A stretch of 55,116 nt of DNA from an uncultured virus (IMG/VR IMGVR_UViG_3300045825_000547) (IMGVR_UViG_3300045825_000547); one strand, 5' to 3'. Counted from the first letter of the stretch, positions 3,596-54,568 are shown. Notes: generated by a model from the letters alone, not told the origin. Made by a program: numbers and translations.

Positions 3596-3630
3596 TAAAT
3601 AAAGGGAGGTTTCTTGGCATAAGAACTATG
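3596..3630 (+). promoter_or_regulatory. Putative phage early promoter, copy 2
   Basis: TAAA-N15-TGGCATAAGAACTATGAAAG, near-identical to copy 1. Confidence 0.7.
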
Positions 3631-3634
3631 AAAG

Positions 3635-3680
3635 AGGAACTGACTTATTGCAGTTCTTACAATAGACCTATGAAGGTCTA
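3635..3680 (+). promoter_or_regulatory. Two-hairpin 5' leader
   Basis: GAACTG-a-C[TTATT]G-CAGTTC and TAGACCT[ATGA]AGGTCTA before the AAGGA SD. Confidence 0.6.
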
Positions 3681-3692: not shown

Positions 3693-4082
3693 ATGAAATT
3701 ATCACAATTAGTAACAAACCACAACAACATGAGAGATACAGCTCTCCAAGTTGCTGCTGACAAAGCTGCTAACGAAAAAGCAGCTAAGGAGATAGCGGAG
3801 CAAGAATTGATTGTTAAAATCAATTCTACCCTTAAGGCTATAAACGGTATTAAAGGTTTTGAGACAATATTCGTTGAGTGTGGGGGAAACACCATAACAT
3901 TCAAACCACATTCTGTAAGTTTCTACGGCATCTGTGCATTTGATGCACAAGGTCATTACCTCAGCGCGACAACAGCTGGATGGGTTCATGACGGTGTACT
4001 TAGAGATTTCTTCTCCCATCAGGATTGTGAGAAATGTATTGTTAGAACCTTAGAGCAATCTCTCTGGTTCCACGCAGTATAA
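3693..4082 (+). CDS. Hypothetical protein in single-gene early cassette
   Basis: AAGGA SD; flanked by promoter copy 2 and a terminator. Confidence 0.8.
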   Translation: MKLSQLVTNHNNMRDTALQVAADKAANEKAAKEIAEQELIVKINSTLKAINGIKGFETIFVECGGNTITFKPHSVSFYGICAFDAQGHYLSATTAGWVHDGVLRDFFSHQDCEKCIVRTLEQSLWFHAV

Positions 4083-4085
4083 ACA

Positions 4086-4125
4086 AAAAAGAACCAACTA
4101 ACAATTGGTTCTTTTTCTTTTTAGC
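4086..4125 (+). terminator. Intrinsic terminator
   Basis: AAAAAGAACCAA-ctaacaa-TTGGTTCTTTTT then CTTTTTAGC. Confidence 0.75.
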
Positions 4126-4169: not shown

Positions 4170-4586
4170 ATGGTATTTATAAATCCCCACGTTCCGCCGC
4201 CACAAGATGTGTGGTTGCTGGTAAGGGCTTTCCATGGAGAAGGTTGGAACCACTATTGTGTAAAGGCTACTTCGCCTTGGCGCTTGGTTCTTGACGGGCC
4301 AGTGAAATGGTATGTAGACCAAGGCATAGCGTTTAAGATTCACAATACAGACAAACAGTTTACTGAGCTTTACAGCTTCTGCCCAGACTTTAAAGGGAAG
4401 CATGGCACGCTAGTCCACTGTAATGATGCCGAGCATCTTGAGAATATATTTGAAACTCGGAAGGATTGGATTATCCCTAAATACTTGTATGGCTCCATTC
4501 ATATTAACCTGCCGGATAACTTTTGGAAAAGAAACAAAGGCTTTGGGAACAGACAAAGGGATTACCATTTTGGAGAAGACTTGTAG
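4170..4586 (+). CDS. 'VW-family' protein, close paralog of 4597-4989
   Basis: PPPQDVWLLVRA...HYCVK...DAEHLE...LPDNFWKRN. Confidence 0.8.
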   Translation: MVFINPHVPPPQDVWLLVRAFHGEGWNHYCVKATSPWRLVLDGPVKWYVDQGIAFKIHNTDKQFTELYSFCPDFKGKHGTLVHCNDAEHLENIFETRKDWIIPKYLYGSIHINLPDNFWKRNKGFGNRQRDYHFGEDL

Positions 4587-4596: not shown

Positions 4597-4989
4597 ATGA
4601 GCTTTATAGACAAAACAAAGCCACCACCTGCTGGGGTTTGGTTACTAACCAGAGCAGCCCACTGTGGGGAGCATTACCATTTCTGTGTTAAATCGAACAG
4701 CTATTGGTACAACACCCGAAGAACGGAGGGGGCAGCAAAATGGGATTCCGGTAGTGGGGTCGCCGCCAAAATACCTAACACAGAGGAACTTGTTAGTGCT
4801 GTCCACCCCTTCAATCCTTATGTTCCAGGGGATACATGTAGATTGCTCCATATAGCCGATGCCGAGTGGGCCGAGACAATAACCAGCGAGGATTTTAGGA
4901 TGAACCAGAGAGCTCTCCCCATTCTCCCAACAGGATTTTGGGAAAGAAACCCACCGTTTTCTGATAGGAGGGAAGATGAGACATATTGA
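4597..4989 (+). CDS. 'VW-family' protein, close paralog of 4170-4586
   Basis: AGGAGG SD before ATG 4597; PPPAGVWLLTRA...HFCVK...DAEWAE...LPTGFWERN. Confidence 0.8.
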   Translation: MSFIDKTKPPPAGVWLLTRAAHCGEHYHFCVKSNSYWYNTRRTEGAAKWDSGSGVAAKIPNTEELVSAVHPFNPYVPGDTCRLLHIADAEWAETITSEDFRMNQRALPILPTGFWERNPPFSDRREDETY

Positions 4990-5407
4990 TTACTTGCGAG
5001 CAGTGATGTATTACGGCAGACAACGGCTCCCTGAGCTAAAGCAACGATCAGTTCCTCCTCCTTCTGTGTGGGTATGTTGGATCGACGTGAACGATTGGTT
5101 GGTGGTGGGGAAGAGTAATAGATGGATAAGTAAGCAAAACGGTTGGGGGTTCTTGGCGACCGACCTAGCCAATACCCAAGCCTACACGGTATATAAAGAC
5201 TTTGGGCACATCCATGATACTCGGACGAGTCTTGAGAGAAATACGGAGTATTTTATAGACTGCTCTGGTTGGGCCTTTCTTGCAGATTCCCACGCTGCGT
5301 GGCTAGAGGGGCAACTAATCGCTGCGGGACAACCCAACGGAGGAGTAGAAAGAATATATATGGTAACGGAGGAATTTTATGAACAATATACCACGATTGG
5401 GGATTAG
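4976..5407 (+). CDS. 'VW-family' hypothetical protein
   Basis: PPPSVWVCW ... HAAWLE. Confidence 0.75.
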   Translation: MRHIDYLRAVMYYGRQRLPELKQRSVPPPSVWVCWIDVNDWLVVGKSNRWISKQNGWGFLATDLANTQAYTVYKDFGHIHDTRTSLERNTEYFIDCSGWAFLADSHAAWLEGQLIAAGQPNGGVERIYMVTEEFYEQYTTIGD

Positions 5408-5960
5408 CCCCTCAGAGGTAATACATAGTAAGGCGAATGCGGTATTACTCAAATACAGTAAACACATTACACCAATCACGATCCCTCTAGCTTGCGAGCT
5501 AGTACTAAGTGAGTCCATATTTAGTAAAGACGTTTGGTACTTCTTTGCGAACCCCGGAGGAAGACTTGGGAGCCTATTCATTAAAGCTATAGGCAACATA
5601 TGGATAGCTCCTGGCAGCTTTGCAGGTATTGGTAGTGCGTACCCATCTATCAGCACAACACCTCTCGGAAGTGGTACACCTCCAGAATCTATGCCTTACG
5701 GGGTGGTAGTCATAGATGGAGCATCTGAGCATCTTATGGCTGGAAGAAACGATATCTTTTTAGGCTTCAGGATGAGCAGTGCAGGCGTAGGGAAAGTTAG
5801 TCAAGAGCTGGCAGAAACATTGGATAAGATGGTAAGCTTTAACCCCATCACAGAACCAAACTCTTCTCCCATCCCGGAGTGGTTAGACACGTTAAGCTCA
5901 GAGATGAAAAGAGTCCATTTAGATTATTTAGAGCAAATTGTAGAGGAAAGTCAACAATGA
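5379..5960 (+). CDS. 'VW-family' hypothetical protein (N-terminally extended)
   Basis: GGAGG SD; SKDVWYFF ... ELAETL. Confidence 0.75.
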   Translation: MNNIPRLGISPSEVIHSKANAVLLKYSKHITPITIPLACELVLSESIFSKDVWYFFANPGGRLGSLFIKAIGNIWIAPGSFAGIGSAYPSISTTPLGSGTPPESMPYGVVVIDGASEHLMAGRNDIFLGFRMSSAGVGKVSQELAETLDKMVSFNPITEPNSSPIPEWLDTLSSEMKRVHLDYLEQIVEESQQ

Positions 5961-6808: not shown

Positions 6809-7294
6809 ATGATTGATCTAGAGATTCTAGCTCTTCCGTCAGAGGAGATAGAAAGTTCATTCAAACTGAATATCATGACCGATGTGCCGAAATATAACAT
6901 AGAAGCGTGCTTCGGTATTTTTGACCCAGAGGAAATGGAGGAGCTAAAAGCAATAGTGTATCTACTAGACTATGCTCTGCATAACCCTCCTCTAGTAACT
7001 GGTAGCTACTCGGGAAAAGACCAGCAAGCCGAGATAGAGAAAGTGGGGGCAGGCAAGTTAATGACTAACGGAGTCCCGATTGCTTGTCTCTTTCCTAACT
7101 CTCCTGAGTTTATTTCTATATACGGGGAAGAAGCCTATTCTAATCTAGAGTGGCACTCAAAGCTCTGGGGAGGAAACAACTGGCCTAAAGATAGGGGTGG
7201 TTCGTCCTATGCAACTATTAAAAGCTTTTCCCTTGTTTTCTACGATGAGCGTGGGGTAGAGATGGGGGTAAAATGGGCAGTAAAGAAGAACTAA
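6809..7294 (+). CDS. Hypothetical protein
   Basis: AGGAGG SD; 161 aa. Confidence 0.8.
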   Translation: MIDLEILALPSEEIESSFKLNIMTDVPKYNIEACFGIFDPEEMEELKAIVYLLDYALHNPPLVTGSYSGKDQQAEIEKVGAGKLMTNGVPIACLFPNSPEFISIYGEEAYSNLEWHSKLWGGNNWPKDRGGSSYATIKSFSLVFYDERGVEMGVKWAVKKN

Positions 7295-7767
7295 TCCAAC
7301 CGTTTGTTTGGTACCACCTAGCGGGACGTGTTGCGGACTATTTTGTAAGATGTAGAGCACATTCCTATTGCGAGGAGGAGCCCTATCATAGGATCGTTGA
7401 TAGCTACAGTAACCACAGAATTGCGGAAGAAGGAGTAGATATGGCCCAGATAACTTGCTCTGGTAAATTCTACCTGTACTCGGTAGCAAAACAGTTTCAC
7501 GAAAGGGTGTGCGGTTTCTTCTCTCGCCCTACTTACCTCCTCCCTGATACCCAAATATGCCCTCTCCCTATTGCTTTAGCGGAAAGACTGCAGAGTGAGT
7601 ATTTAGATAAAGGGGGGAAACACGGAGGAGGGGAGGTTGGAAGACTTCCTGTGATGCCATATATAGAGGAGTGGATAAAAGCCACAAAGGAGAAAACTAC
7701 ATGCCGAAACTACAGCCCAAGGCAAGTTGGACGTATGATCAACAGAACAAGTATTCGCGAGAGCTAA
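7273..7767 (+). CDS. 'VW-family' hypothetical protein
   Basis: QPFVWYHL ... LPIALAERL. Confidence 0.75.
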   Translation: MGSKEELIQPFVWYHLAGRVADYFVRCRAHSYCEEEPYHRIVDSYSNHRIAEEGVDMAQITCSGKFYLYSVAKQFHERVCGFFSRPTYLLPDTQICPLPIALAERLQSEYLDKGGKHGGGEVGRLPVMPYIEEWIKATKEKTTCRNYSPRQVGRMINRTSIRES

Positions 7768-8222
7768 AAGAACTTAATGATCTTCATCGAGTTCAGCTAA
7801 AAGAAACAAAAGACCTGAGGCAGGCCTATAAAGATTGGATCTCTTCCCGCAAGATTCATGACTTTGATCAAGCTAGTGTTTGCATGGAAATGATATCTTT
7901 CCTCCAATCTTCTAAGGAGGATAGTAGGAAGATAATAGCGGCTAAAGCGAAAGCCCTAGAACCCGATGACTGGGAGAAAACGCTCCCGGCTTGGTATACC
8001 AAATGCACCTATTGCGGGAAAGAGGATAACAGACCAACAACGAACTATCTAGTATCCAACCAATTCCGTCATTCAAATTGGTGCAACTCTTGGCTTAAAC
8101 GGGAATTCCAACCGAAAGCCTTTTGTGAGAGCTGTATAGTGATAGTTCGGAGGGATTACCCGAGCGGAGAAGAAGACAAGTGGGTGGCGGTGAAAGAGCC
8201 TTCCACCCTTCACACATATTAA
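7701..8222 (+). CDS. Coiled-coil plus CxxC...CxxC putative Zn-binding protein
   Basis: AAGGAG SD before ATG 7701; CTYC and CESC. Confidence 0.75.
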   Translation: MPKLQPKASWTYDQQNKYSRELKELNDLHRVQLKETKDLRQAYKDWISSRKIHDFDQASVCMEMISFLQSSKEDSRKIIAAKAKALEPDDWEKTLPAWYTKCTYCGKEDNRPTTNYLVSNQFRHSNWCNSWLKREFQPKAFCESCIVIVRRDYPSGEEDKWVAVKEPSTLHTY

Positions 8223-8240: not shown

Positions 8241-8768
8241 ATGCGTAAATGGGTTAGAGAATTAGGTAGCCAAAAGAAAGGCATTGTTATTGCGACGAAT
8301 CTTCCCCCGATTACGCCTCCCCCGCCCCTACCAGTTGTAATAGAGTTTGTTACCAGAAGAGGACCAACAGGGGAAGAACCAGAAGAAACCGATGAAGAGG
8401 ATAACGAAGAGGATTTTCCTCGCACGCTTAAATGGTGGTATGCGTACCAAAATAATCCTATGGGGGTAGACGATTACTTCCCAGAGAAAGGTGTGGGGCA
8501 GTATGTTTGTTTTGAGGCCTATTCTAAAGACGATGCGGATACCAGGTTCCAGGATTCTGTTAGGCCTACAAGTTCTCGTGAGTGTGATTGCTGCGGGGAA
8601 AGATGGGAATGGGGACTAAATGGAAGCGGGACTGATGAGCCCACGATCTATGGCAAGTCTATAAAGGAGCATCTAACAGAGGGCAACTATACATGTGGTA
8701 TGTCAATCTTTCTCCATTACTGGGATGGAAGCATAGTAGAAGTAGTGTCAAGGAGAGCAAGCAAATGA
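8241..8768 (+). CDS. Hypothetical phage protein with QNN...CDCCGERW motif
   Basis: Resembles a recurrent uncharacterised phage family (QNNxxG...CxCCGxRW...HxxDG); recalled, not searched. Confidence 0.7.
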   Translation: MRKWVRELGSQKKGIVIATNLPPITPPPPLPVVIEFVTRRGPTGEEPEETDEEDNEEDFPRTLKWWYAYQNNPMGVDDYFPEKGVGQYVCFEAYSKDDADTRFQDSVRPTSSRECDCCGERWEWGLNGSGTDEPTIYGKSIKEHLTEGNYTCGMSIFLHYWDGSIVEVVSRRASK

Positions 8769-9247
8769 CAGAGAAGAAGAAAAAACAAGAGCCACCCTTT
8801 CCACCAGTTTTCCGCTTGCGTTGCCGAGAAGATTGGACAAAGGAAATGAGGGAGCAATACGCAGACGAGAAGGAAGGACTAGCCTATTTGCATCGCGCGC
8901 AGATAGAGGATAAAGCTACCTTAAAGGCTTTGTTCCTTCTAATAAAGCATTCCTTTAAAGGGAAAGACCTAGACTATAAACAGTTAGATACTTTAGAACG
9001 CAGGCAGGAAGAAATAAAGCAGCAGCAACGAACTCTGGCTTATAGAAAACTGCAAATGTTTGAATTGCGTCTGCTCCTTAAGCCCGATGCATGGGCTGAC
9101 AGATGGTTCCCTGCTTGTGAGACTTGTAAGAAGAGAAAGGAAGATGTGGAGTGGAGGATAGACCCCTACAACCATGAGATTCATGATGATGAATCTAAAC
9201 ATTATATATGCGGGGATTGTTATGATGACGCTCTGGGGGATATATGA
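8765..9247 (+). CDS. Coiled-coil plus C-terminal Zn-finger-like protein
   Basis: ATGA overlap at 8765; CETC...DPY..EIH...CGDCY. Confidence 0.75.
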   Translation: MTEKKKKQEPPFPPVFRLRCREDWTKEMREQYADEKEGLAYLHRAQIEDKATLKALFLLIKHSFKGKDLDYKQLDTLERRQEEIKQQQRTLAYRKLQMFELRLLLKPDAWADRWFPACETCKKRKEDVEWRIDPYNHEIHDDESKHYICGDCYDDALGDI

Positions 9248-9618
9248 TAGCTACTACAACCCCTGTCGCTGCTCCTGCCCCACTTGTCTGGTATTATTTG
9301 CCCGTCGGTAACTTACTGGTACGAATACCAGAGAAGGGGGTAACCCTCACGGAAGGGGCTGCTATGTATTATAACGACATACGTAACACACAACAGATTG
9401 CTGTAGATTACCATTCCGTGGGGTTTCTCCGGAAATGGGCGGGAAACTCTGCCGCACATAAGGTGGCAGTCCCAATAGATTTAGCGGAGAAATTAAACAG
9501 ATATATAAGTAACTCCTCGTATATGGATTATCTAGGGGTGTGTGTTGAGCTTAGTGTATCTGTGGAAATAGTCGAGTGGGTAAAGGCGGGATGTTTACTA
9601 GAGAGAGCACAAATGTAG
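9244..9618 (+). CDS. 'VW-family' hypothetical protein
   Basis: PAPLVWYYL ... VPIDLAEKL. Confidence 0.8.
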   Translation: MIATTTPVAAPAPLVWYYLPVGNLLVRIPEKGVTLTEGAAMYYNDIRNTQQIAVDYHSVGFLRKWAGNSAAHKVAVPIDLAEKLNRYISNSSYMDYLGVCVELSVSVEIVEWVKAGCLLERAQM

Positions 9619-9622: not shown

Positions 9623-9660
9623 GAAATAACACGCCTTTTCTTGGCATAAGATAGTACAAA
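9623..9660 (+). promoter_or_regulatory. Putative phage early promoter, copy 3
   Basis: GAAA-N15-TGGCATAAGAT, followed by hairpin AAGAGA...TCTCTT and a T-tract. Confidence 0.65.
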
Positions 9661-11200: not shown

Positions 11201-11626
11201 ATGAAAGATAGATTTACCAAAGATGCTTGGTGGCAAGCAACTTGCATAAATTTAAATAAATGGGGGTATGAGACCTACGCCAATGTTTTAACAGTGGTTA
11301 AGCCTCAGCCCAGAAACTGGTACGTATTAAGGTATGCCGGCACTAAGGATTCTTGGGACGCATCAGTATATAAAGATTCTAAAGTGTTCACCCCTTTCAT
11401 GATTGTGGAAGCCGCTAGTGGGACAGATGCCCATCTTAGAATAACCGCACTGGAGCCCGATCTTACTATTGATTGGTTTGCCCAATTAGATTGGTGGTGG
11501 GTGGATCAAACGGCTTCTGAGTGGGAGGCTTGTTTTGTTAAGATAAAACACAATCTAACGTACCCATACATAGTAGCTCTGCTCCACGCAAACGATATGG
11601 TTCAGCATGTAAGCATGGAGGAATAA
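11201..11626 (+). CDS. Hypothetical protein, likely distant paralog of 8241-8768
   Basis: WY...IVEAASGTDA...WWW...LLHANDMV pattern. Confidence 0.7.
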   Translation: MKDRFTKDAWWQATCINLNKWGYETYANVLTVVKPQPRNWYVLRYAGTKDSWDASVYKDSKVFTPFMIVEAASGTDAHLRITALEPDLTIDWFAQLDWWWVDQTASEWEACFVKIKHNLTYPYIVALLHANDMVQHVSMEE

Positions 11627-11630: not shown

Positions 11631-12242
11631 ATGGCTAAAAGAAAATCAGCAAAGCTAACACCAGATGCCCCATCCCTTGTGATAGGCGTTAGGCGCTCCA
11701 CAGTGGAGGAAGCCCCCACGCTTAAATGGTTTAATGCGGAGGTTTATGTTGGCATGGAAGTGATGAAAACTCCTCCGCCTATGTACTGGCTTCAAGCTAA
11801 AGATAGAGAAACTGCTGTGGAACACTCTCCTGCAGTTTTCATAGAGGAACTGGATAGATGGGCGGCGTTACGAGCCTCTCACGCAGAAGGCGTAACCACC
11901 CCATTCCATCATCCTGACTCAACGATGTCAGTAAATACTTGGGTTAACGCTACGGGAAGAACTGTGTTTCTTGTACATGCTACAGGAAAGATAGAGAAGG
12001 TAGAACAGGTATGTGTGAGAGACCTTTGCCTTTTATTTGATGGGCATCCCACACCAATCGAAACTTTCTCTACGGAAGAGATGATACTAGTGGAGGCAAA
12101 TGATACGTCTCCTCCTTTCACCTCAGTAGTTAGAAGGAGAGACGTTGACGAGTTAATCTATGGTAAATCTCTGCTGTTCTCATCAAGCAGGGGAAAAGGA
12201 GAGCTAACTATTAAGGGGGAACAAAGCTATGGGAAGAAATGA
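11631..12242 (+). CDS. Hypothetical protein, likely paralog of 8241-8768
   Basis: GGAGG SD; TLKW...LQAKDRETA...DRW...VFLVHATGKIEKV. Confidence 0.75.
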   Translation: MAKRKSAKLTPDAPSLVIGVRRSTVEEAPTLKWFNAEVYVGMEVMKTPPPMYWLQAKDRETAVEHSPAVFIEELDRWAALRASHAEGVTTPFHHPDSTMSVNTWVNATGRTVFLVHATGKIEKVEQVCVRDLCLLFDGHPTPIETFSTEEMILVEANDTSPPFTSVVRRRDVDELIYGKSLLFSSSRGKGELTIKGEQSYGKK

Positions 12243-12489
12243 TGTCCCTATGGGGGTTTGGTATTTTGATACAAGAAGCGTGTCGTTTTGTAATTGTTAT
12301 TACTACAAAAGAATACCGGAGGATCCGGGTATAATATCCGTGACAGAAGATGGGGGAATTATTCGTTATTTTTCAAATATGCCGCACTTTAAAACTACCG
12401 CTTCTGCAGAAGAAGCTGCGGTATTAGAACAGATCATCACAGCAAATGCGAGCTTATTACGATTAAGGCGCGAGAGGGAAAAGAAATGA
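12229..12489 (+). CDS. 'VW-family' protein (array member 1)
   Basis: DVPMGVWYF ... AEEAAVLE. Confidence 0.75.
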   Translation: MGRNDVPMGVWYFDTRSVSFCNCYYYKRIPEDPGIISVTEDGGIIRYFSNMPHFKTTASAEEAAVLEQIITANASLLRLRREREKK

Positions 12490-12815
12490 AGAGAAAACAA
12501 AAGCCTGTTCCTCCCCTCATACCCTTAGAAGTATGGGTATGGGTACAGGACACCCCCTGGGCTATAATGTGTTACAGAAAAACAGCCACACCAAGAGATG
12601 GCGTGGCGGAAGCTATTCAGCTTTCCTCTGGTATTATCTTTTGGAATATAGATGTGGATGCTAGATTAGGAGAAAACATCTTCTCCTTTGTTCCTATGAA
12701 AGGAGTGGAGATACTAAGGCAATTGATGGATATGGAAGACTCTGATTATGTGGGACGACTGCAGGTAAGAGATCGAAGACTTTTATTAAATAAATTGGAG
12801 GCTATGTTGGTATGA
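12486..12815 (+). CDS. 'VW-family' protein (array member 2)
   Basis: IPLEVWVW; ATGA overlap. Confidence 0.75.
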   Translation: MKRKQKPVPPLIPLEVWVWVQDTPWAIMCYRKTATPRDGVAEAIQLSSGIIFWNIDVDARLGENIFSFVPMKGVEILRQLMDMEDSDYVGRLQVRDRRLLLNKLEAMLV

Positions 12816-13198
12816 TAGACCTGATAGACATAGACCCCCCTGCTTTCATACCAGATGTGTGGAGAATAGTAAGAGGGGGCAATTGGGTAAAGAGCAAAAT
12901 AGAACAACACCCAAACCAGGAATCGAGTTCAAGATCTTATTCCTCCCATTTCACTGTAGACGTGGTCCTATGTTCGGTAATGCATTATGCTCCAGATTAT
13001 TGGATGCTTGCATTGGAGGAAGGAAGAGTGATAGACAATATGGAAATAGTAAATCTACTGGAAGAGGCTATTACTCCATCTATACAGATGAAATTCCCCC
13101 TCCTATATTCCCGCAACATACACTGGGAGCTACCAAAAGAGATTCAGACCAAAATATATGAGATTATAAAAAGAAATGCGGAGAAAAAAGCAATATGA
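12812..13198 (+). CDS. 'VW-family' protein (array member 3)
   Basis: FIPDVWRI ... EIVNLLEE. Confidence 0.75.
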   Translation: MIDLIDIDPPAFIPDVWRIVRGGNWVKSKIEQHPNQESSSRSYSSHFTVDVVLCSVMHYAPDYWMLALEEGRVIDNMEIVNLLEEAITPSIQMKFPLLYSRNIHWELPKEIQTKIYEIIKRNAEKKAI

Positions 13199-13587
13199 AA
13201 CTAAACACTTTCCCTCCGGAGATTTGGTTCAGAGGACATGCAGCTGCATGGTCTGCACCTTTCTTCTTTAAAACTATTAAGGACAATCCTATTGGGGCTT
13301 GGACCATTACACGATACCCATCAAATGCTTACCTAAGTGAAGGAACGTGGCTGCCGTTCCATGCAGTGAGAGAGGTTGTTCAATTGAATACTGCGGATGC
13401 AGAGATCCTAGAATGTATCCTCCATAAGCACAAAGAGAAAGTGAGTAAAAGATGGAACGGGACAGATATAGTAGGTATTTCTAAATTCCCGCTCCCTTAT
13501 AAGAAAATGAGCTCTGTCCTAAAGAAAGGGGAGATATTAATGGTACCAACCCATGAAAGTGATTGGGAAGGACAGGAGGAGGAATGA
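13195..13587 (+). CDS. 'VW-family' protein (array member 4)
   Basis: FPPEIWFR ... DAEILE. Confidence 0.75.
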   Translation: MKLNTFPPEIWFRGHAAAWSAPFFFKTIKDNPIGAWTITRYPSNAYLSEGTWLPFHAVREVVQLNTADAEILECILHKHKEKVSKRWNGTDIVGISKFPLPYKKMSSVLKKGEILMVPTHESDWEGQEEE

Positions 13588-14042
13588 AAACAATAACGCG
13601 TAATATAGCTAATGATAGATTTGCTTATAGTGCTGACTATACTAGGAGATATGAGTTATATGATTGTGCTCTAGATGTTTGGTATTCGCTTAGCCATGAA
13701 TACCATTGTGTTAGTTTCTTCAAGCGCATCTATAGTGGGATGTTTATCGTGCTTGTGGAGAGAACAACAGATTTTGAGATTTTCTCTATCGAGCAGCTTA
13801 ACCAGTATCTTGCAGGAAGTCGCCCGTATCCTATTTCTTTTTCCAAAGCCTTAAAGTTGCAGGAAGTTGTTGCCACTGCAGGCTCCACTGACAGAGACCG
13901 ATACTTGGGAACATATATCGAAAGCCTAAGGGGAGAGGAATTCATAAAAGCACTAGCAGAACATAGTGACTGGGGGGATGTGGATATGTTTATTGATAAA
14001 GGTTCCCACATAGAGTTCCCAGTAAGGAGCTACCTACCATGA
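13584..14042 (+). CDS. 'VW-family' protein (array member 5)
   Basis: GGAGGAGG SD; ALDVWYSL ... PISFSKALKL. Confidence 0.75.
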   Translation: MKTITRNIANDRFAYSADYTRRYELYDCALDVWYSLSHEYHCVSFFKRIYSGMFIVLVERTTDFEIFSIEQLNQYLAGSRPYPISFSKALKLQEVVATAGSTDRDRYLGTYIESLRGEEFIKALAEHSDWGDVDMFIDKGSHIEFPVRSYLP

Positions 14043-14380
14043 GTAACGAAATTCTCTCAGGGGTGTGGCTGTATTGGTTCGCAAAAGAATTCAGAGGAGT
14101 GGAGCTTTTATTTGGGAAAGTGAGCAAGAACGGTTCCCATCTCCATGTGATTATTGAGCCGAGTGGCTCTATCAATGATGACCTGGAGCCTTGGAAGTTT
14201 CCTCTGTTCATGAGCCCCCTAGATTTTAAACGACCCCCAATAGCGTTGGCAGAGGCCTTAGAGAATGTCCTTCAGCATTATTACACGAGTGAAGATTTCT
14301 TTATGGACTACCAAGCCCCATCTAAATTAGAAATGTTATTAAAAGAGGAGATAAATATATATTTTGCAAGTTCAAACTAA
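14039..14380 (+). CDS. 'VW-family' protein (array member 6)
   Basis: LSGVWLYW ... PPIALAEALE. Confidence 0.75.
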   Translation: MSNEILSGVWLYWFAKEFRGVELLFGKVSKNGSHLHVIIEPSGSINDDLEPWKFPLFMSPLDFKRPPIALAEALENVLQHYYTSEDFFMDYQAPSKLEMLLKEEINIYFASSN

Positions 14381-14825
14381 CATAACAGATATTCCGTACG
14401 TAATTCCTCGTACGAAACAGAAGGTGTGGTTCTCTATGGATGTGTGGTATTACTGTAGTGTTAGCAGTACTATCTTCCAATTGTCAACTCCTCCTCCTAT
14501 CGGGGAGAGAACTGTTTCCATAAAACCTAATTTGTTCGACGTAGGTGGCTATACATCGTTTGAAGTGATAAACACTTGTCTCTTTATTGACAGTCCTGTT
14601 ATTGCACCTGCTTCCCTTGTAGAGAACTTCATTCTTCCGGTCATTGCGAAATATGATGCATGGAGAGAAGAACGGAAGCGTGCTACTTATGAGTATAACT
14701 CTCATGGACATTATGTAACTCCTCTGATGAACAAACGCTGCCCTGATTACCTATTTATAAAACTAGCTGATGAATTAATTAAAACAAAGGAGGCTTATGC
14801 AAACAATACTAATGAAATGGCCTGA
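14364..14825 (+). CDS. 'VW-family' protein (array member 7), paralog of member 8
   Basis: TTG start after GAGGAG; SMDVWYYC ... IAPASLVE. Confidence 0.7.
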   Translation: MQVQTNITDIPYVIPRTKQKVWFSMDVWYYCSVSSTIFQLSTPPPIGERTVSIKPNLFDVGGYTSFEVINTCLFIDSPVIAPASLVENFILPVIAKYDAWREERKRATYEYNSHGHYVTPLMNKRCPDYLFIKLADELIKTKEAYANNTNEMA

Positions 14826-15315
14826 TAAGACCGGACTGGCTATCCCCCGTAACGGGCTAGTCACAAAAGATGGGTTCTGGTTCTACCCTTGCCGCGTCCT
14901 ACCAGAGCTAATGGGGGAACCTGGACAGCTTGCGTGGGTTAGGGAAGATATTTGGTACTTCTCTGAAAGGGGTCAAATTTACTATAAGCTTTCTTCCACA
15001 CCTGAGTTTTCTCAGCGGGTTATTATAGTGGTCCCCCGAGATGGGGAGGTGGTAAAGGGTTACAGCATGTTTCAGATTATAACCACCATATTTCAGGTCT
15101 CTGTTCCCATAGTTGTTCCAACGGAATACGCTGAGCTTCTTTACTTAGCCCAGGATGCCTATGAGAGGTGGAGAAGCACTTGGGATGAAACCGGCTACAA
15201 CGGCGCAAGGGATCTGGACTGCTACCACTTCTTAGGAGAGTCTTTAGTGAGAAATATTGTGGCCGCAACAATAGATATTATGACAGCGCAGGAGGAATAC
15301 GCTTATGCAAGTTAA
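14797..15315 (+). CDS. 'VW-family' protein (array member 8)
   Basis: AAGGAGG SD; REDIWYFS ... VPTEYAELL. Confidence 0.8.
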   Translation: MQTILMKWPDKTGLAIPRNGLVTKDGFWFYPCRVLPELMGEPGQLAWVREDIWYFSERGQIYYKLSSTPEFSQRVIIVVPRDGEVVKGYSMFQIITTIFQVSVPIVVPTEYAELLYLAQDAYERWRSTWDETGYNGARDLDCYHFLGESLVRNIVAATIDIMTAQEEYAYAS

Positions 15316-15727
15316 ACTACCTTGCTACGACGCTGGGATGCTCGGCGGGAAATACGAGATCACACCGAAGATACACCCAGGCCGTATTGCAGCCCCTCCC
15401 TTAGGGGTTTGGGTGAAGGACGGACAAAGCTACTACCAAAAGGACGTAGATAGACAATTCTTTTGTTGGGAGATAGATACCCAAGAATATAGTGTGAGAG
15501 GTATTGTGTATGGAACTCTCATGTCTAATAGCGGAGGACCTGGTTGGTATGTGGCAGGACAAGAAGTGGGGGAGCTTCTTACTAATATCTGCAAGTTCCT
15601 TGAGAAATCGGAGGAGGCTCTGCCTGTTATTGATAAGTACCGCCACAAAATGCTAATACCTATAGGCCTTTTGGGGGAACTAGCAGCTGCTATAGAAAAA
15701 GAAGAAAAAGAGAGAAACCCTAAATGA
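15305..15727 (+). CDS. 'VW-family' protein (array member 9)
   Basis: PPLGVWVK ... VAGQEVGELL. Confidence 0.75.
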   Translation: MQVKLPCYDAGMLGGKYEITPKIHPGRIAAPPLGVWVKDGQSYYQKDVDRQFFCWEIDTQEYSVRGIVYGTLMSNSGGPGWYVAGQEVGELLTNICKFLEKSEEALPVIDKYRHKMLIPIGLLGELAAAIEKEEKERNPK

Positions 15728-16077
15728 TAATTTCAGAAAAACATGGGAAGCTAGTGCGGGGGAGAGACGTTCCTATGGGGGTGTGGTGCTCACCCCGAGA
15801 AGTTACCCACTCCTTGTATTTTAAAGACCCTGATGAACAACTAGTACTGGTAATTTACTCAGCAATCAGTATGGCTGGTTGGTATTCGCATTTGCCGCTG
15901 TTTGATGCCTACAACCCTGTCCTAATTCTTAACCAAGAACTAGCAGAGAAAATGAATCAAGTGAGGGATGCGTTGTATGCAGCAATGGCACCTAAAAAGC
16001 CATTTGTAGATCAGTACTATGGAAATAAACCACACAATCTTGTATCTAAAGTACTGAAGGAGATAAACAAATCATGA
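15724..16077 (+). CDS. 'VW-family' protein (array member 10)
   Basis: DVPMGVWCS ... ELAEKM. Confidence 0.75.
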   Translation: MIISEKHGKLVRGRDVPMGVWCSPREVTHSLYFKDPDEQLVLVIYSAISMAGWYSHLPLFDAYNPVLILNQELAEKMNQVRDALYAAMAPKKPFVDQYYGNKPHNLVSKVLKEINKS

Positions 16078-16529
16078 AAGAATATCTTTCCAGAAGAGAA
16101 CAGGAAAAGAAAGAAAAGGGGAAAGACTCTTCGCTTGACGAAGTGTGGTTCTATAGGATAGCTGAGGCCGTAGCTGCATGGGAAAACTCAAAGAGGATGT
16201 GGTTCTATAAACGAATAGATCTCCCTTCTCTGCCGCTAGGGTGTTTAGTTGTTAGATTTTACCAACACGATATGCAGTTTATATCAGGTATGAGTTCTCC
16301 TAGCTTGGGAGGGGCATATTCCTTATGCCCTATCGATGTGGCAGAGAAGTTAGAAAGGCTTTACCGCACACAGTATATTGCCGGTCTTCTTGACCTACAA
16401 CACCTAGGGAAATATCAAAGAGATGGGGCGATTACTACACGCTTCACACGAAGTTGCTTCTTCCCTATCAAGGAGGCGTGCCAGGAAACAGGGATTTGGG
16501 ATGATGGAGGATATTATGCTCAAGTATAA
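16074..16529 (+). CDS. 'VW-family' protein (array member 11)
   Basis: LDEVWFYR ... CPIDVAEKLE. Confidence 0.75.
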   Translation: MKEYLSRREQEKKEKGKDSSLDEVWFYRIAEAVAAWENSKRMWFYKRIDLPSLPLGCLVVRFYQHDMQFISGMSSPSLGGAYSLCPIDVAEKLERLYRTQYIAGLLDLQHLGKYQRDGAITTRFTRSCFFPIKEACQETGIWDDGGYYAQV

Positions 16530-16938
16530 AGGGAAAAGACTACCAACAATTAAGATCCAAAATCTTATAGCTTCCAAGGGGGTAGGAGTATGGGTGACGG
16601 CGTTTAGGAATGGAGATTGGCGAGAGTTTCATAATCTTTTAGAAATCAAAGCCAGTGGTGGAGGTTTGTGGCGAATATACGAGTTTGCTTACCACCCCTC
16701 TTACTGGGGATGCCAGCATCAGAACACAATGGAAGCAACTAACACTAACCTACAAATCTGCCCGTTTGAACTGGCGCAAGTACTAGATGAAGTTAGGGGA
16801 GAGGTAGAAGCAAGATACGAGTCCCTAGGTGATCACCATATTACGCATGAACGACTAACAGACCAGGAGTATATGAAGATCATGGACGTGCTGGAAAGCG
16901 ATGATTTTAAAGATCCTTGGGAAGGAGGAAAAGAATGA
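16516..16938 (+). CDS. 'VW-family' protein (array member 12)
   Basis: GGAGG SD before ATG 16516; GVGVWVT ... CPFELAQVLD. Confidence 0.75.
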   Translation: MLKYKGKRLPTIKIQNLIASKGVGVWVTAFRNGDWREFHNLLEIKASGGGLWRIYEFAYHPSYWGCQHQNTMEATNTNLQICPFELAQVLDEVRGEVEARYESLGDHHITHERLTDQEYMKIMDVLESDDFKDPWEGGKE

Positions 16939-17381
16939 CTAAATTTGCTTGGTGCCCCACATTAGTGGGGAAAGAGGCTCCCCCTGGTATATGGGTGACA
17001 TGGGCTCCTAACCCTTTCGGTACAGTAAAGATATCCGCCGACCCACATGTGTTTAGGAAATATGTAAGAACGGGTTCAGCACAACCTAGTTCCAATTACA
17101 ACATGATTGAGGTGGACATTCTTGGGGATATGAGTGCTTATACAGATCAGTATCCAACATTGTCTGTTGATTTGTACAATTTCATATCACACCGCCCCAC
17201 CACGGTATTCACTGTTGTTCCCCACGACTTAGCGGCAGTGTTAGAACGAGTAGCTATTGAGAGGAAGGGGAAGATGAGAGACCTAGATAGATTCGATATA
17301 CCAGGAGACGACGTGTTGTGGATACAAAGAACAATAGATTATTTAGAGAGGGAACATTATGCCAAACAACAAACAAAATGA
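16935..17381 (+). CDS. 'VW-family' protein (array member 13)
   Basis: APPGIWVTW ... VPHDLAAVLE. Confidence 0.75.
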   Translation: MTKFAWCPTLVGKEAPPGIWVTWAPNPFGTVKISADPHVFRKYVRTGSAQPSSNYNMIEVDILGDMSAYTDQYPTLSVDLYNFISHRPTTVFTVVPHDLAAVLERVAIERKGKMRDLDRFDIPGDDVLWIQRTIDYLEREHYAKQQTK

Positions 17382-17823
17382 CGATAAGCCGGCTAAGCTG
17401 CCACTTGACCTTTGGTATTTCAAGCCTACCGGCTATGCAGCGTTTTATCTACCACTAAGCACATCAATTCCGCAAGGAGATCAACAAGTAGACATACAAA
17501 GGCGTATCCATTCTTGGAACGATGCACTATATGGTGTATTTCCGGGTAAGAGTAGGATAGATTCTTACGACACCTGCTATGTTTTTTCCTGCGTCAATCC
17601 TGCTAGTTTGGTGTTAGCTCCTATGCCTTTAGTGAATGTGTTGGATAAGGTGAGGGAAGAATATGTTATGAATATGGATAAACATTATATGCACATGTAC
17701 AGAGACGTGAATCCTGGAGAGATAAGCGAAGGGCTTCTCATTCAGCTACGAGCCCTTACTGAGGAATTCACAAAGACTTGTGTTATCGACGACAAAAGGA
17801 GGTTATATGCCACGCACTCCTAA
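17359..17823 (+). CDS. 'VW-family' protein (array member 14)
   Basis: LPLDLWYF ... APMPLVNVLD. Confidence 0.75.
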   Translation: MPNNKQNDDKPAKLPLDLWYFKPTGYAAFYLPLSTSIPQGDQQVDIQRRIHSWNDALYGVFPGKSRIDSYDTCYVFSCVNPASLVLAPMPLVNVLDKVREEYVMNMDKHYMHMYRDVNPGEISEGLLIQLRALTEEFTKTCVIDDKRRLYATHS

Positions 17824-18190
17824 GACTGACACAATTCCCTATGAAGGGTTATGGACAATGGCAAACACAAATGTGGCTGTTTGGGGGAAGATAACTGAGA
17901 AGCTGACGCAACCTAACTCGGTTCATGTGGTTGTGAATTTGCTATCGGGTCTGGTTAGATTCCACCCCCGAGGTTGGTGGCCCCGCTTCTTCAACATTCA
18001 TAACCTAGCCCCTTTTGGCACGGCAGAGATATTGGATAGAGAGATTTCTCCAACCTCCCACCCTTGGATCTTTGGGGAAGATGCTTGGCTATCTGTGCAA
18101 TCAGAGCTGCAACACATCTGGCTGCCTGATCCGGCTTGTGATGAGTGTAGGAGCTTTATTCAAGAAGAATGGCTGAGGAGGCACAGATGA
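17807..18190 (+). CDS. 'VW-family' protein (array member 15)
   Basis: AGGAGG SD; PYEGLWTM ... APFGTAEILD. Confidence 0.75.
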   Translation: MPRTPKTDTIPYEGLWTMANTNVAVWGKITEKLTQPNSVHVVVNLLSGLVRFHPRGWWPRFFNIHNLAPFGTAEILDREISPTSHPWIFGEDAWLSVQSELQHIWLPDPACDECRSFIQEEWLRRHR

Positions 18191-18588
18191 ATAATACACA
18201 GTTTTACGATAGTCTTTGGCGATACTACGCTAACGAAAACGCTTTCATAAAAAGTTCGTTTACTTCCATTTATGACAAAGACACAACGGACAACGTCGCA
18301 AGGCATGACGTGAAAATGGTGCATACATTTATCACAGTGGCTTGGGGTTTTGTTAATTGGTACGAACCCGGGTACTGGGGGTACAATACTCTACCCTTAT
18401 TTGATTACCCTGTGTGTGACTTTGCATTTAGTTGCTTCTTAGAAGATCTGGATATAGCTAGTAGGGCTAGCCGAGTAGGGGATGGGGGAAAAATAACATC
18501 TGCAGCGGTCAATGCAGAAGCTAGAGCCATATTATATAAAAAGGTAGAACAAATAAGAGGAGAAATGAAACATGAAGCAACCGCCTGA
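18187..18588 (+). CDS. 'VW-family' protein (array member 16, divergent)
   Basis: YDSLWRYY ... VCDFAFSCFLE. Confidence 0.7.
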   Translation: MNNTQFYDSLWRYYANENAFIKSSFTSIYDKDTTDNVARHDVKMVHTFITVAWGFVNWYEPGYWGYNTLPLFDYPVCDFAFSCFLEDLDIASRASRVGDGGKITSAAVNAEARAILYKKVEQIRGEMKHEATA

Positions 18589-19021
18589 TGTTTGGTATTA
18601 CGATAAGGAACTATGCGCATTTACTATGGTTCCTAGCACCGAAATGGGAAGGTCTGGAACGAGATCCCGAAACAGCCTATACATGATTACGGCGTTTCCT
18701 CACCCAGAAGAAAAGCGTTTTATGTTTGACCACATCGGTAGCTATTCAGTTCTTCCTTCGTTCTATGGGTATAACGCAAGCCGATGCAAACCTGTACCGA
18801 TCCATCTGGCTGAACGATTAACCGAATGTGCTGTAGGGTATGACTATAAAATGTATCTGAAATACGACTCATTAGAAGGTTGTGGCGTAAATTACAGCGT
18901 TAGCCCAGGAGAGATAAATCCATTTCTTTATGATCTGGTACAGATAGAAGTGAAGAAGCATTACCAAGAGGAAATGAAACCAAGAAAGAAGGAGAACAAA
19001 CACAGCTATGGATATAAATGA
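18572..19021 (+). CDS. 'VW-family' protein (array member 17)
   Basis: QPPDVWYY ... VPIHLAERL. Confidence 0.8.
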   Translation: MKQPPDVWYYDKELCAFTMVPSTEMGRSGTRSRNSLYMITAFPHPEEKRFMFDHIGSYSVLPSFYGYNASRCKPVPIHLAERLTECAVGYDYKMYLKYDSLEGCGVNYSVSPGEINPFLYDLVQIEVKKHYQEEMKPRKKENKHSYGYK

Positions 19022-19367
19022 ATTAATAGACGGCCTTTGGTATACCGTGGGAAGTAACCCCTGGCGATGGGATCCTGCCTTCCTATACATCAAACAGGTC
19101 CCTGAGCAGGAATACATGAGTGTGTTCTTTTTCCTAACCGGGAGTGACTGTATCTATTCACTAGACGGAAACGAATCTATCAATAAAATGATTGATGTGT
19201 TCGTTGCTCCGTTTGCTGAGGCCGAGCTATGTCATAAATTAGCTAAACCTGATAGGCTATTCCCAAAGCATTGGCTACCCCATGAAGGGGAAAAGGAGAT
19301 GGAAGATCTACATAAGCTGAGAGGCTTATTCGAGGAGAGGAAAGCTAAAGCTTTGGCGGGAGGGTAA
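19008..19367 (+). CDS. 'VW-family' protein (array member 18)
   Basis: LIDGLWYT ... VAPFAEAELC. Confidence 0.8.
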   Translation: MDINELIDGLWYTVGSNPWRWDPAFLYIKQVPEQEYMSVFFFLTGSDCIYSLDGNESINKMIDVFVAPFAEAELCHKLAKPDRLFPKHWLPHEGEKEMEDLHKLRGLFEERKAKALAGG

Positions 19368-19804: not shown

Positions 19805-19839
19805 CTTTATTCCCTAGCTCCTATATTTATATACAACAA

Positions 19840-19875
19840 AAAGACCCCCACTTCTGGAGGTCTTTCTTTTTAGCT
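19840..19875 (+). terminator. Intrinsic terminator
   Basis: AAAGACC-c-CCA[cttc]TGG-a-GGTCTTT then CTTTTTAGCT. Confidence 0.7.
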
Positions 19876-19880: not shown

Positions 19881-19915
19881 TTAATCTCGCCCCAATTCTT
19901 GGCATAAGATTATAG
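19881..19915 (+). promoter_or_regulatory. Putative phage early promoter, copy 4
   Basis: TTAA-N15-TGGCATAAGATTATAGG. Confidence 0.6.
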
Positions 19916-20079: not shown

Positions 20080-21336
20080 TTAGGGTTTTTCTTTTTTAGC
20101 TTTCTCAAATCTGCTGTAGTCTCCTGGAGGTCTTGCATCCAATCTAGCTCTAGCCTCTTGCTTATAAATATTCCAGTTAAAACGCGGTCTTTTGGCTAGT
20201 CTATTCCTAGTTTCTCTCTTATAAGTATTCACGTCAAACTCTTCAGTCTTAGCATTCGCTCTTATGGTAGCGTCTCTGCCTTGGAAATTTCTCCTCTTAG
20301 CTTCATTCCAAACTTCTTTTAATTGATCACCAACATTTGATTTAACCCAGGTTTTAGCCGTCGGTATTATTTGTTTAATCTCTTGTTTTTTCTTTGCCGC
20401 TAAGTTCTTAACATTCCCAGCAATATTTGCTAAGTCACTGGTTTCTCCTACTAAAGGGTTAATGATATTAGTATGTGCCCATATACGGGCCTTACTTAGT
20501 TTATGCCCTTCCTTACCCGATGCATAAGCAGCCACTACTGGGTTATACAGAGTTTTATTATTAATTGCATCTTGTATTTTATTTATTAATGGGTGTTTTT
20601 TAATATCAAATGTAATGCCTGCACCCCGCTTTATAACATTAACCGCCGCAGTGACGGGCTCTTTGTAAGCAAGAGCGGCAGTAGCACCAGCTTCTGCAGC
20701 ATACCCTGTCGCGTTTCTTAATTTCTGGCGAAGAGGTGACACCGCAACTGGTAATTGTTTTGCTTTAGGTTTTTCTACCAAGCGGTTAAGTACTTTACCA
20801 ATTGTGGAATTTTTAAATTTATCTGCAACCTTTGGGTCATACAGATGGTTTATCTGAGGATATGACGAGTGCAAGGCTTCGTGTATGTAATCTACGTCTT
20901 TATGCACCGCTTTGATTTTATCTGCTGCAGCAGCAGACCCGGTAACCACGGCATGTGCGTAGTCATAATGGTGTTGCGGCAGATTACTATCCCACCCTAG
21001 CCCAGATTTATCCAAATGTGCTTTCAGCTTTTTACCTAAATCATTAGCCTGGGCATGGAGGATACCCACCTCTGGGCTAATAACCCTTTTCACCCCTAAA
21101 GCTACTTGATGTTTAACGGGGAAATCTTGGTGTCCTTGTACTCCCGCTAAAAAACTATTGTGGTACATATTAAGCTGGCTCTCGCTGTGCATAATCTTTT
21201 TACTGATCTGGTTCTGCACTAGATGTCCCGCAGCCCCATGGGCAACCATAGTCCCCGAGGTAGAAAGTGCAGGGACTAACCAATTAGCCTCTTTGCTTAA
21301 AGACTTATCAAGATATATATGTGTTCGATTGTTCAT
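20080..21336 (-). CDS. Basic His/Lys-rich putative head-internal protein with KxA leader
   Basis: MNNRTHIYLDKSLSKEA N-terminus; downstream of the baseplate genes on the same strand. Confidence 0.65.
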   Translation of the reverse strand: MNNRTHIYLDKSLSKEANWLVPALSTSGTMVAHGAAGHLVQNQISKKIMHSESQLNMYHNSFLAGVQGHQDFPVKHQVALGVKRVISPEVGILHAQANDLGKKLKAHLDKSGLGWDSNLPQHHYDYAHAVVTGSAAAADKIKAVHKDVDYIHEALHSSYPQINHLYDPKVADKFKNSTIGKVLNRLVEKPKAKQLPVAVSPLRQKLRNATGYAAEAGATAALAYKEPVTAAVNVIKRGAGITFDIKKHPLINKIQDAINNKTLYNPVVAAYASGKEGHKLSKARIWAHTNIINPLVGETSDLANIAGNVKNLAAKKKQEIKQIIPTAKTWVKSNVGDQLKEVWNEAKRRNFQGRDATIRANAKTEEFDVNTYKRETRNRLAKRPRFNWNIYKQEARARLDARPPGDYSRFEKAKKEKP

Positions 21337-29386: not shown

Positions 29387-29491
29387 ATGAGTAATTACTT
29401 TGTATATGTAGCGATAAGAGTGTTGCTTTCTTTTTTAGCTTTCCTAGCGCTTCTTGGGGTTTGGTTAGATAGTTTAGGAGGAGGGGAATAA
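29387..29491 (+). CDS. 34-aa hydrophobic microprotein (not in ORF track)
   Basis: MSNYFVYVAIRVLLSFLAFLALLGVWLDSLGGGE*; TAATG overlap with next gene; also contains a terminator-like hairpin plus TTTTTTAGCT, so may be spurious. Confidence 0.4.
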   Translation: MSNYFVYVAIRVLLSFLAFLALLGVWLDSLGGGE

Positions 29492-29868
29492 TGGATAAAC
29501 CTGTAACAAAATATAAACTGATGGCAGAACAAGAGACTCCAGAGCAAAGAGCTAAACGCTTGGAGTACTGTAAAGAGGCTTCCAGGAAATATAGATTAAA
29601 AGTCGGATCTACTGTCGCTATGGATAGGTTTTATTCTAAGTTTACGGAAGAGGAAAGACTTGCGTATGTAGGGAAAAAGTATAGAACCTACAGAGCTAAC
29701 AGGAAAGCTAAAGAAAATGCTGAGCAAAAAGAAGACAGATTAAAGAAAGAAAGAATTAGAAATAATAGATATTACGCAAAGAAAAAGGTGGACCCAGAGA
29801 GATATAAGCTGCTGCAAGAAAAACAGAAAGCCTATAGGGATAAGAGGAGGGACGAGAGTAATGAATAA
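29491..29868 (+). CDS. Lys/Arg-rich helical-repeat (STPR-like) putative DNA-binding protein
   Basis: GGAGGAGG SD; ETPEQRAKRL / FTEEER / ENAEQKEDRL units. Confidence 0.7.
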   Translation: MDKPVTKYKLMAEQETPEQRAKRLEYCKEASRKYRLKVGSTVAMDRFYSKFTEEERLAYVGKKYRTYRANRKAKENAEQKEDRLKKERIRNNRYYAKKKVDPERYKLLQEKQKAYRDKRRDESNE

Positions 29869-31054: not shown

Positions 31055-31092
31055 TTAAAATCAAGCTGTTTTTTGGCATAAGATATATGAAA
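31055..31092 (+). promoter_or_regulatory. Putative phage early promoter, copy 5
   Basis: TTAA-N15-TGGCATAAGATATATGAAAG, followed by two hairpins and a GAGGAG SD. Confidence 0.65.
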
Positions 31093-32149: not shown

Positions 32150-32156
32150 GTTACCC

Positions 32157-54566: not shown

Positions 54567-54568
54567 TC

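Follow-up and report, generated by a model that had tools for sequence, protein, structure and literature searches.

A family of hyper-divergent small paralogous proteins, 18 of them encoded in one unbroken array, in DNA of an uncultured virus

Large phages are rich in orphan genes, the origin and roles of which are an open problem, and the question arises directly in a stretch of DNA from an uncultured virus (IMG/VR IMGVR_UViG_3300045825_000547). The stretch analysed, here called the window, comprises 55,116 nucleotides (nt) of a 179-kb (179,116-base) contig, and all counts given below, including copy number and genomic context, cover this window only. Between positions 12229 and 19367 it carries 18 consecutive small genes which, together with twelve others elsewhere in the window, ordinary annotation would list as about 30 unrelated hypothetical proteins. 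Are they unrelated? A first-pass annotation made from the sequence alone had proposed that they share a two-part signature and represent one expanded scaffold. We find that they constitute a real, hyper-divergent paralogous family, referred to below as the VW family, with about 24 secure and six probable or possible members.

The 18 open reading frames (ORFs) of the array lie head to tail on the + strand without gaps. All 18 junctions, including that with the upstream gene at 11631-12242, are overlaps of 4-29 nt, nine of them of the ATGA type, and a GGAGG-like stretch precedes most array gene starts. This arrangement permits translational coupling, as had been proposed. Every one of the 18 carries the N-terminal tryptophan motif described below, and the array is unbroken as claimed. 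Twelve further VW-family genes lie outside the array at four other places in the window; these too have the motif, in one case (33371) with G-W in place of V-W. Members range in size from 86 to 193 residues, and together the family takes up 11,948 bp, equal to 21.7% of the window's length and 6.7% of that of the whole contig. For seven genes (13584, 16501, 16935, 17807, 4597, 33371 and 33990) an internal ATG was used in place of the start of the longest ORF.

Unsupervised alignment of the 30 candidates with MAFFT placed a tryptophan in a single column in 30/30 sequences. The residue before it (-1) is V, L or I in 29/30, that at -2 is G, D or E in 26/30 and that at +1 is Y, V, L or F in 26/30, while positions -3/-4 are rich in proline; with the starts used, the tryptophan falls at residue 8-53. 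A V-W pair at the C-terminus is not a family feature of any window ORF. In its strict form, [GDE][VIL]W[YVLF], the four-residue motif occurs 36 times in a six-frame translation of the window, compared with 11.0 ± 3.0 (maximum 18) in 100 shuffles, and the N-terminal motifs of family genes account for 22/36 of these occurrences. The second proposed motif is real as an aligned block, with A in 25/30 members, E in 21/30, L in 20/30 and P in 14/30, but only 9/30 match it strictly as x-P-x-x-x-A-[EQ]-x-[LMIV], and its distance from the tryptophan is 53-96 residues (median 64.5) rather than the 40-90 first given. The intervening segment had been called aromatic-rich and essentially unalignable. Its aromatic character is borne out, F+W+Y making up 12.8% of residues in members and 8.8% in 25 other window ORFs (W alone, 2.9% and 1.2%), whereas MAFFT does align blocks within it ([FYW][FY]K, an x-P-[ESND] turn and h-x-[YW]), albeit weak ones. 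A further block, [EQ][ED]-[WFY]-h-K, follows the helix predicted below. No member is a hydrophobic protein and isoelectric points range from 4.7 to 8.6, pointing to soluble products. In the ESM Atlas the record of 18572-19021 begins at residue 38, a gene call that loses the W motif; automated start calls may thus be hiding the family signature in databases.

The case for common descent is carried by hidden Markov models (HMMs) from which the member under test, and also its close twin, had been left out. With these, 26/30 held-out members outscore all 133 other ORFs and 27/30 are matched by at most one of 200 plain shuffles. When the shuffles preserve the W motif, 24/30 members are still matched by no more than six of 200; the shared signal therefore exceeds the motif. 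In ten random half-splits, 114/300 held-out members scored above each of approximately 270-300 controls, which is far above chance and far from complete. Members thus recover one another above both the shuffled and the non-member background, as is required of a lineage-specific paralogous expansion, and the HMM recovery that the first-pass annotation had put forward as a check of its paralogous-family claim upholds that claim. No further member was found among 434 ORFs of at least 30 residues with the full HMM, the next best scoring 4.0 bits. Inspection by eye shows W-Y-like stretches near the N-termini of two further products, those of 11201-11626 and 11631-12242; they scored -0.3 and -1.3 bits and were not counted as members.

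Existing family collections are blank for these proteins, in keeping with the expectation that annotation would see only unrelated hypotheticals. Pfam gave no family for any of the 30 proteins at an expectation value (E) of 0.01 or below and, for six members at E ≤ 1, nothing beyond one chance-level Erythrovirus_X row. PHROGs and NCBIfam yielded nothing useful for the 30 proteins, the one PHROG row, for 7273 (E 0.0099), having no assigned function.

Structure prediction with AlphaFold was carried out for two members. The model of the 149-residue member 18572 (27-row alignment; predicted local distance difference test, pLDDT, 60.7; predicted template modelling score, pTM, 0.51) has strands at residues 8-11, which hold the tryptophan, 16-19, 37-40 and 72-74, and helices at 77-98 and 117-135. 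That of the 86-residue member 12229 (34 rows; pLDDT 73.1, pTM 0.54) has strands at 11-13, again holding the tryptophan, 23-27, 35-39 and 44-47, and a helix at 60-85. In both models the tryptophan lies in strand 1 and the helix begins four residues ahead of the conserved E. The predictions support a common part in which a long helix comes after four strands arranged as a beta sheet or small barrel, with A-E-x-L forming the first turns of that helix. The beta-sheet-plus-helix scaffold proposed earlier is therefore predicted for both modelled members, while its extension to all 30 would be drawn from two models. Neither model gave a fold match above noise. Known small barrel-plus-helix systems with which the models may be compared are Sm/LSm-like proteins (the LSm-helix design 7eq9_A, 3by7_A and Gemin6/7), MazF/Kid/CcdB and Tudor/PWWP; by sequence, the Sm/LSm family model in Pfam matched none of 30/30 proteins at E ≤ 0.01 and none of six members at E ≤ 1. 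A homodimer prediction for the 86-residue member scored 0.12 (mark 0.42), which gives no support for a dimer and speaks neither way.

That the W motif is by far the most conserved feature (30/30) invites the interpretation that it is a shared address label, P-P-G-V-W-Y being a docking peptide for a common partner such as a host hub or, for packaging and injection, the assembling head, as with the capsid-targeting sequences of T4 internal proteins. The motif is always near the N-terminus and follows a poorly conserved, proline-rich tail (56% identity between orthologues), and four members (32514-34307) directly adjoin the block of large proteins. The distance of the motif from the N-terminus varies, however, and both models bury the tryptophan inside strand 1 (pLDDT about 68-81) where a label would be expected as a free peptide. 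Six members do have little else in common, but the 24/30 that exceed motif-preserving shuffles share more than a label, and the window has no recognised head protease. We consider a mere label unlikely.

How old the set is can be judged from related phages. Seven members have orthologues (P0007, P0009, P0010 and P0016-P0019, from Logan assemblies) with 75-89% identity, and a 1305-residue protein of the same phage has a counterpart of 84%. Identity between orthologues is 56% in the N-terminal tail before the motif, 80% in strands 1-2, 83% in the paralogue-specific middle, 83% in the helix and 78% in the C-terminal part. With the middle at 83% and the shared blocks at 80-83%, what differs among paralogues stays constant across phages, and this sequence pattern argues against a fast arms race and for an old, maintained set. 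Recent "accordion" amplification was looked for and rejected, near-identical tandem DNA copies not being found in the array. A repeat scan detected no long direct repeat among array genes, and the sole DNA repeat between two members is one of 27 nt (81%) over the W motif (D19: 5521-5547 and 14939-14965). Any excess of similarity between neighbouring genes over random pairs comes from 4170/4597 and 14364/14797; without both, the mean Smith-Waterman score is 31.8 for neighbours and 30.2 for random pairs. P0007 joins a 4597-type start (16/17 of its first 17 residues identical) to a 4170-type body (80% overall), which suggests that neighbouring paralogues have exchanged sequence, or undergone gene conversion, at the conserved motif. 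On this evidence the family would have arisen by tandem duplication long ago, followed by divergence to saturation with each copy retained. Pairwise similarity is gone for nearly all copies, yet each would be kept by purifying selection in sister phages, and this implies distinct jobs rather than redundancy.

What would those jobs be? The reading that we favour, with moderate confidence and with its functional part a guess, is of one scaffold family of soluble, early or middle cytoplasmic proteins, each copy with a host or phage target of its own. Conserved aromatic and aliphatic positions would build the core, the length-variable stretch from strand 2 to the helix would carry the copy-specific part, and each copy would bind its own partner in host takeover, counter-defence or regulation. 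The small-gene blocks are read as early or middle and cytoplasmic because they stand behind a promoter-like element (described below) and apart from the large-protein block.

Several points weigh against this reading. Pairwise comparison of 163 ORFs with phmmer gave four links only, 4170/4597 (E 1.5e-20), 14364/14797 (3.9e-12), 32514/33670 (1.1e-5) and 12229/15724 (1.3e-3), and unsupervised iterative HMMs started from each single member never spread past its twin, which makes the homology invisible to routine tools. Six members (13584, 18169, 1363, 4976, 33371 and 33670) fail to beat motif-preserving shuffles and rest mainly on the motif; in the leave-one-out test 18169, 4976 and 33371 were failures, and 13584, 1363 and 33670 were weak, the last being tied to 32514 by phmmer. 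When an HMM is trained only on array genes, 7/12 dispersed members score above all controls; when it is trained on the dispersed genes, only 4/18 array members do, and hhalign of these two halves gave a probability of 31.5%, confined to the A-E-x-L block. Sequence support is thus weak outside the two motifs. Only 2/30 members were modelled, at moderate confidence, and both predictions may owe their common layout to the shallow, paralogue-only alignments from which they were made.

Taken to the extreme, the scarcity of pairwise links, the failure of iterative searches to spread and the low hhalign value, in a list of candidates selected by motif, would mean that there is no real family, only unrelated small ORFs with a short aromatic motif that arose by composition or chance and was picked by eye. 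We regard this as extremely improbable. Composition or chance would have to supply the motif in 18/18 consecutive genes and at 36 occurrences against 11 ± 3, align a second, independent block without supervision, and lift the leave-one-out and split-half results far above shuffled and other-ORF controls; the seven members with conserved orthologues, moreover, are real genes.

The even conservation of paralogue-specific segments also counts against separate targets, as it fits a fixed multi-part machine equally well. The products would then be a set of subunits that assemble together, as seven Sm/LSm paralogues do in one ring, with the coupled genes providing matched amounts; we think this doubtful, about as much so as the address label. 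The array could also be an immunity or antidote row, a stack of small proteins inhibiting the toxins or nucleases made by hosts or by competing phages. Polyimmunity loci of this kind occur in bacterial toxin systems, and for this locus we find the idea distinctly improbable. The scaffold family with separate targets is ranked above these three, the single assembly, the address label and the immunity-like inhibitors. A more specific proposal is an adaptor repertoire: an invariant face, formed where the P-P-G-V-W-Y of strand 1 packs against the A-E-x-L helix, would dock every copy on one host hub (such as RNA polymerase, the ribosome or a protease), and the variable insert would bring a different client to it in each copy. 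Such a repertoire, which is a long shot, would if true amount to about 30 maintained specificities on a new small-barrel scaffold, and would be to bacterial viruses what the ankyrin/F-box or BTB-kelch families are to poxviruses. On balance, what the first-pass annotation had observed stands, and its interpretation stands in part, namely as one divergent family with blank annotation, overlapping genes and two sheet-plus-helix models; the binder, anti-defence or host-takeover role that it also put forward is a conjecture.

Individual members differ in their support, given here as the leave-one-out score in bits (close twin also removed) and the number of 200 motif-preserving shuffles reaching it; all are on the + strand. 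In the array, gene 1 (12229-12489), the smallest at 86 residues and taken as the minimal domain, scores 10.1 bits (1/200) and gene 2 (12486-12815, 109 residues) 8.7 bits (0/200). Genes 3 (12812-13198, 128 residues; 7.4 bits, 6/200) and 4 (13195-13587, 130 residues; 5.6 bits, 3/200) have the orthologues P0016 (81%) and P0019 (75%), respectively. Support is weak for gene 5 (13584-14042, 152 residues, LDVWY; longest ORF from TTG 13563), whose 2.9 bits are reached by 58/200 shuffles and 2/133 other ORFs. Gene 6 (14039-14380, 113 residues, PPIALAEAL) scores 11.4 bits (0/200). Gene 7 (14364-14825, 153 residues, TTG start; 6.6 bits, 4/200) is a recent tandem duplicate of gene 8 (14797-15315, 172 residues; 13.2 bits, 0/200), to which it is linked by phmmer at 3.9e-12. 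They are followed by gene 9 (15305-15727, 140 residues; 6.4 bits, 1/200), gene 10 (15724-16077, 117 residues; 10.9 bits, 0/200; phmmer 1.3e-3 to 12229), gene 11 (16074-16529, 151 residues, CPIDVAEKL; 17.9 bits, 0/200), gene 12 (16501-16938, 145 residues, longest ORF from 16423; 12.8 bits, 0/200; orthologue P0010, 79%), gene 13 (16935-17381, 148 residues, longest ORF from TTG 16917; 15.2 bits, 1/200), gene 14 (17359-17823, 154 residues; 10.6 bits, 1/200) and gene 15 (17807-18190, 127 residues, longest ORF from GTG 17780; 5.1 bits, 2/200; orthologue P0018, 80%). Gene 16 (18169-18588, 139 residues, DSLWRYY) lacks A-E-x-L and is doubtful by HMM, its -0.1 bits being reached by 28/133 other ORFs; it is counted for its W motif and array position only. 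Gene 17 (18572-19021, 149 residues) scores 22.7 bits (0/200) and has the orthologue P0017 (78%), and the last, gene 18 (19008-19367, 119 residues), scores 9.1 bits (3/200).

Upstream of the array, the gene at 848-1366 (172 residues, W23) scores 6.4 bits, above 133/133 other ORFs (3/200). Its neighbour at 1363-1767 (134 residues, PDIWY...IDVAELL) has both motifs and, at 6.6 bits, is above all other ORFs, with weaker support against shuffles (30/200). The gene at 4170-4586 (138 residues, 10.4 bits; orthologue P0007, 80%) is a recent tandem duplicate (phmmer 1.5e-20) of that at 4597-4989 (130 residues, longest ORF from 4423; 23.3 bits, 0/200). Membership is doubtful for 4976-5407 (143 residues, PPPSVWV), which at -0.8 bits is equalled or bettered by 51/133 other ORFs. 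The remaining upstream members are 5379-5960 (193 residues, with a long N-terminal tail and its tryptophan at residue 53; 12.3 bits, 0/200), 7273-7767 (164 residues, LPIALAERL; 7.9 bits, 0/200) and 9244-9618 (124 residues; 15.0 bits, 0/200; orthologue P0009, 89%). Of the four downstream genes, 32514-32825 (103 residues; 10.2 bits, 3/200) is linked by phmmer (1.1e-5) to 33670-33978 (102 residues), which is placed in the family through this paralogue and without it scores only 4.7 bits (80/200). The gene at 33371-33673 (100 residues, VPHKMAEDF), with G-W for V-W, is a doubtful member (1.7 bits, 35/200), and 33990-34307 (105 residues from ATG 33990; longest ORF from 33927) scores 9.9 bits (0/200).

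Is the family found elsewhere? A 27-member profile searched against 1.84 billion representative proteins at E ≤ 0.001 gave eight matches, five of them the window's own proteins and three near-orthologues. This search recovered only 5/27 of its own training sequences and is therefore blind to equally diverged foreign members, so that lineage restriction here means "nothing detectable" only. A word-indexed search returned seven rows, three window proteins and four orthologues. As judged by such searches, detectable members are confined to this phage and to phages closely related to it. No close relative emerged when the array was compared with phages by megablast, when IMG/VR was scanned using 18572 and 20080-21336 as queries, or when JGI metagenomes were scanned using 16501 plus P0010. 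The family profile gave two rows against PDB sequences, with E values of 1.1 and 2.4, which are noise, and two members had no usable match in the ESM Atlas, where the models provided reach a pLDDT of just 0.37-0.38. Open-access text searched by word, a test that proves little, returned no description of this family or of phage small-protein paralogue arrays. The array stretch is present in two wetland metagenome runs, one of which may be its source, the pieces from the other being identical (0 differing letters in the 8 pieces listed), and no RNA run is listed as containing it.

One distant relative of the phage could be identified. The 1305-residue window protein has four relatives only among 5.8 billion proteins, namely itself and proteins of 84%, 37% and 31% identity, and tblastn against a GenBank phage set gave no match for it. 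A profile made from these four led to one IMG/VR genome, G001 (206,856 bases, CheckV 100%), which has four proteins in common with the window at 21-29% identity. G001 is a true jumbo phage, with a terminase, a family A polymerase (PolA) and a 2046-residue fused RNA polymerase. The last is encoded by a single ORF (L010:1628-7768, - strand) that carries Rpb2 (beta) and Rpb1 (beta-prime) domains, and is thus a fused enzyme of the multisubunit type; a reverse transcriptase (RVT_1) gene lies near it (L010:9377-10306, + strand). A Por_Secre_tail sorting domain at L002:5761-7026 hints at a Bacteroidota host for G001. No such family as the VW proteins was seen among 893 ORFs of G001 by hmmsearch with filters off, and the four-residue motif is not enriched there (49, compared with 43 ± 6). 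The expansion therefore post-dates the split from G001, or else the family is unrecognisable there. The best G001 score, 11.3 bits (E 0.021), belongs to one 85-residue ORF (L009:8871-9128, + strand) that reads P-Q-V-D-G-W-Y-W-V and then L-F-I-R-T-D-P-D-G; it is sub-threshold, has no Pfam match, and could be a single-copy distant cousin or chance. DUF551 (PF04448), which we take to be a small phage barrel domain, was tried as a candidate and rejected: it matched none of the 30 proteins at E ≤ 0.01, nor six members and the best G001 ORF at E ≤ 1, and PF04448 finds nothing in G001.

The remainder of the window is almost as unfamiliar as the array. In a Pfam search of 20 large or flanking ORFs the sole named domain was Peptidase_M23, at 54545-55114, and among the small genes of the early-looking region the only family above cut-off was DUF7296 (E 1.5e-16), at 8241-8768 (+). 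The 532-residue product of 34773-36371 (-) is likely a phage-encoded sigma factor, as its C-terminal part matches sigma-70 models (NCBIfam TIGR02937, E 3.5e-10, 39.8 bits, just short of the 42.9 cut-off), with a weak PHROGs sigma-factor row (phrog_351, E 3.2e-6) and a counterpart in G001 (27% identity, E 2.8e-20). For the large - strand proteins of the window the sole relatives are encoded in G001, by large orphan genes that follow one another there, and these window proteins are probably a particle or late module. Since the window proteins are nearly all unrecognisable and G001 is a jumbo phage, we assign the window to a large uncultured phage whose lineage has been poorly sampled. Two paralogue pairs stand outside the VW family: a Cys-rich pair at 7671-8222 and 8693-9247 (+; phmmer 8.5e-5), and a pair at 29491-29868 and 30217-30489 (+; 1.7e-10), of which the former has a weak Pfam STPRs row (E 1e-5), just below cut-off.

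Signals that may control the small-gene blocks are also repeated. A 14-base element, TTCTTGGCATAAGA, occurs five times on the + strand, always between genes (1780-1793, 3611-3624, 9638-9651, 19896-19909 and 31070-31083; expected 0.86), one copy having one mismatch, and alignment of the flanks reveals a conserved element of about 45 nt. Its copies stand before + strand small-gene blocks, and it may be a phage promoter or another regulatory site. The one at 9638-9651 (+) heads the unit running into the array and would be a candidate promoter for it. The copy at 19896 points at convergent - strand genes. Between the array and these genes, at 19838-19867, lies a putative terminator, a strong hairpin with a T-run whose 13-pair stem is listed on the - strand. 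A near-identical hairpin-plus-T-run family, GGAACCAA...TTGGTTCC TTTTCTTTTT, is found at 2170-2221, 4074-4125 and 32143-32194, at the ends of small-gene units, and is terminator-like. Short pieces near 3610-3641 and 4088-4122 recur at equal depth on two other contigs of run X1, which are probably other parts of the same genome.

If the members do share one scaffold, a large share of this phage's "dark" genes becomes one structural problem, and the family shows some 30 ways in which natural sequences can encode a single small fold, besides being a testable set for pull-downs and defence screens. Growth of gene families by lineage is a known theme in large viruses (PMC13359090; PMC9391042). What is new here is the family itself, its scale, with about 30 copies of which 18 form one unbroken array, and the evidence of an old, maintained set.

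Two known systems bear comparison. Gene accordions, exemplified by amplification of poxvirus K3L and of T4 tifA, likewise consist of same-strand tandem copies that duplication or recombination has generated in accessory DNA of a large virus, and the two recognisable pairs and the recombinant-like P0007 recall them. Accordions, however, are recent, near-identical and unstable, whereas nearly all VW copies have diverged past pairwise detection and each is conserved between sister phages; arrays of this kind are commonly taken for accordions driven by a fast arms race, and old, individually conserved copies argue against that view. The T4-type internal-protein locus encodes hypervariable small proteins whose only common part is an N-terminal capsid-targeting sequence, and so resembles the VW array in being a run of very different small phage proteins with a short N-terminal motif. 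The VW proteins differ from it in having further common blocks and a predicted fold, and in a motif that is modelled as a buried strand.

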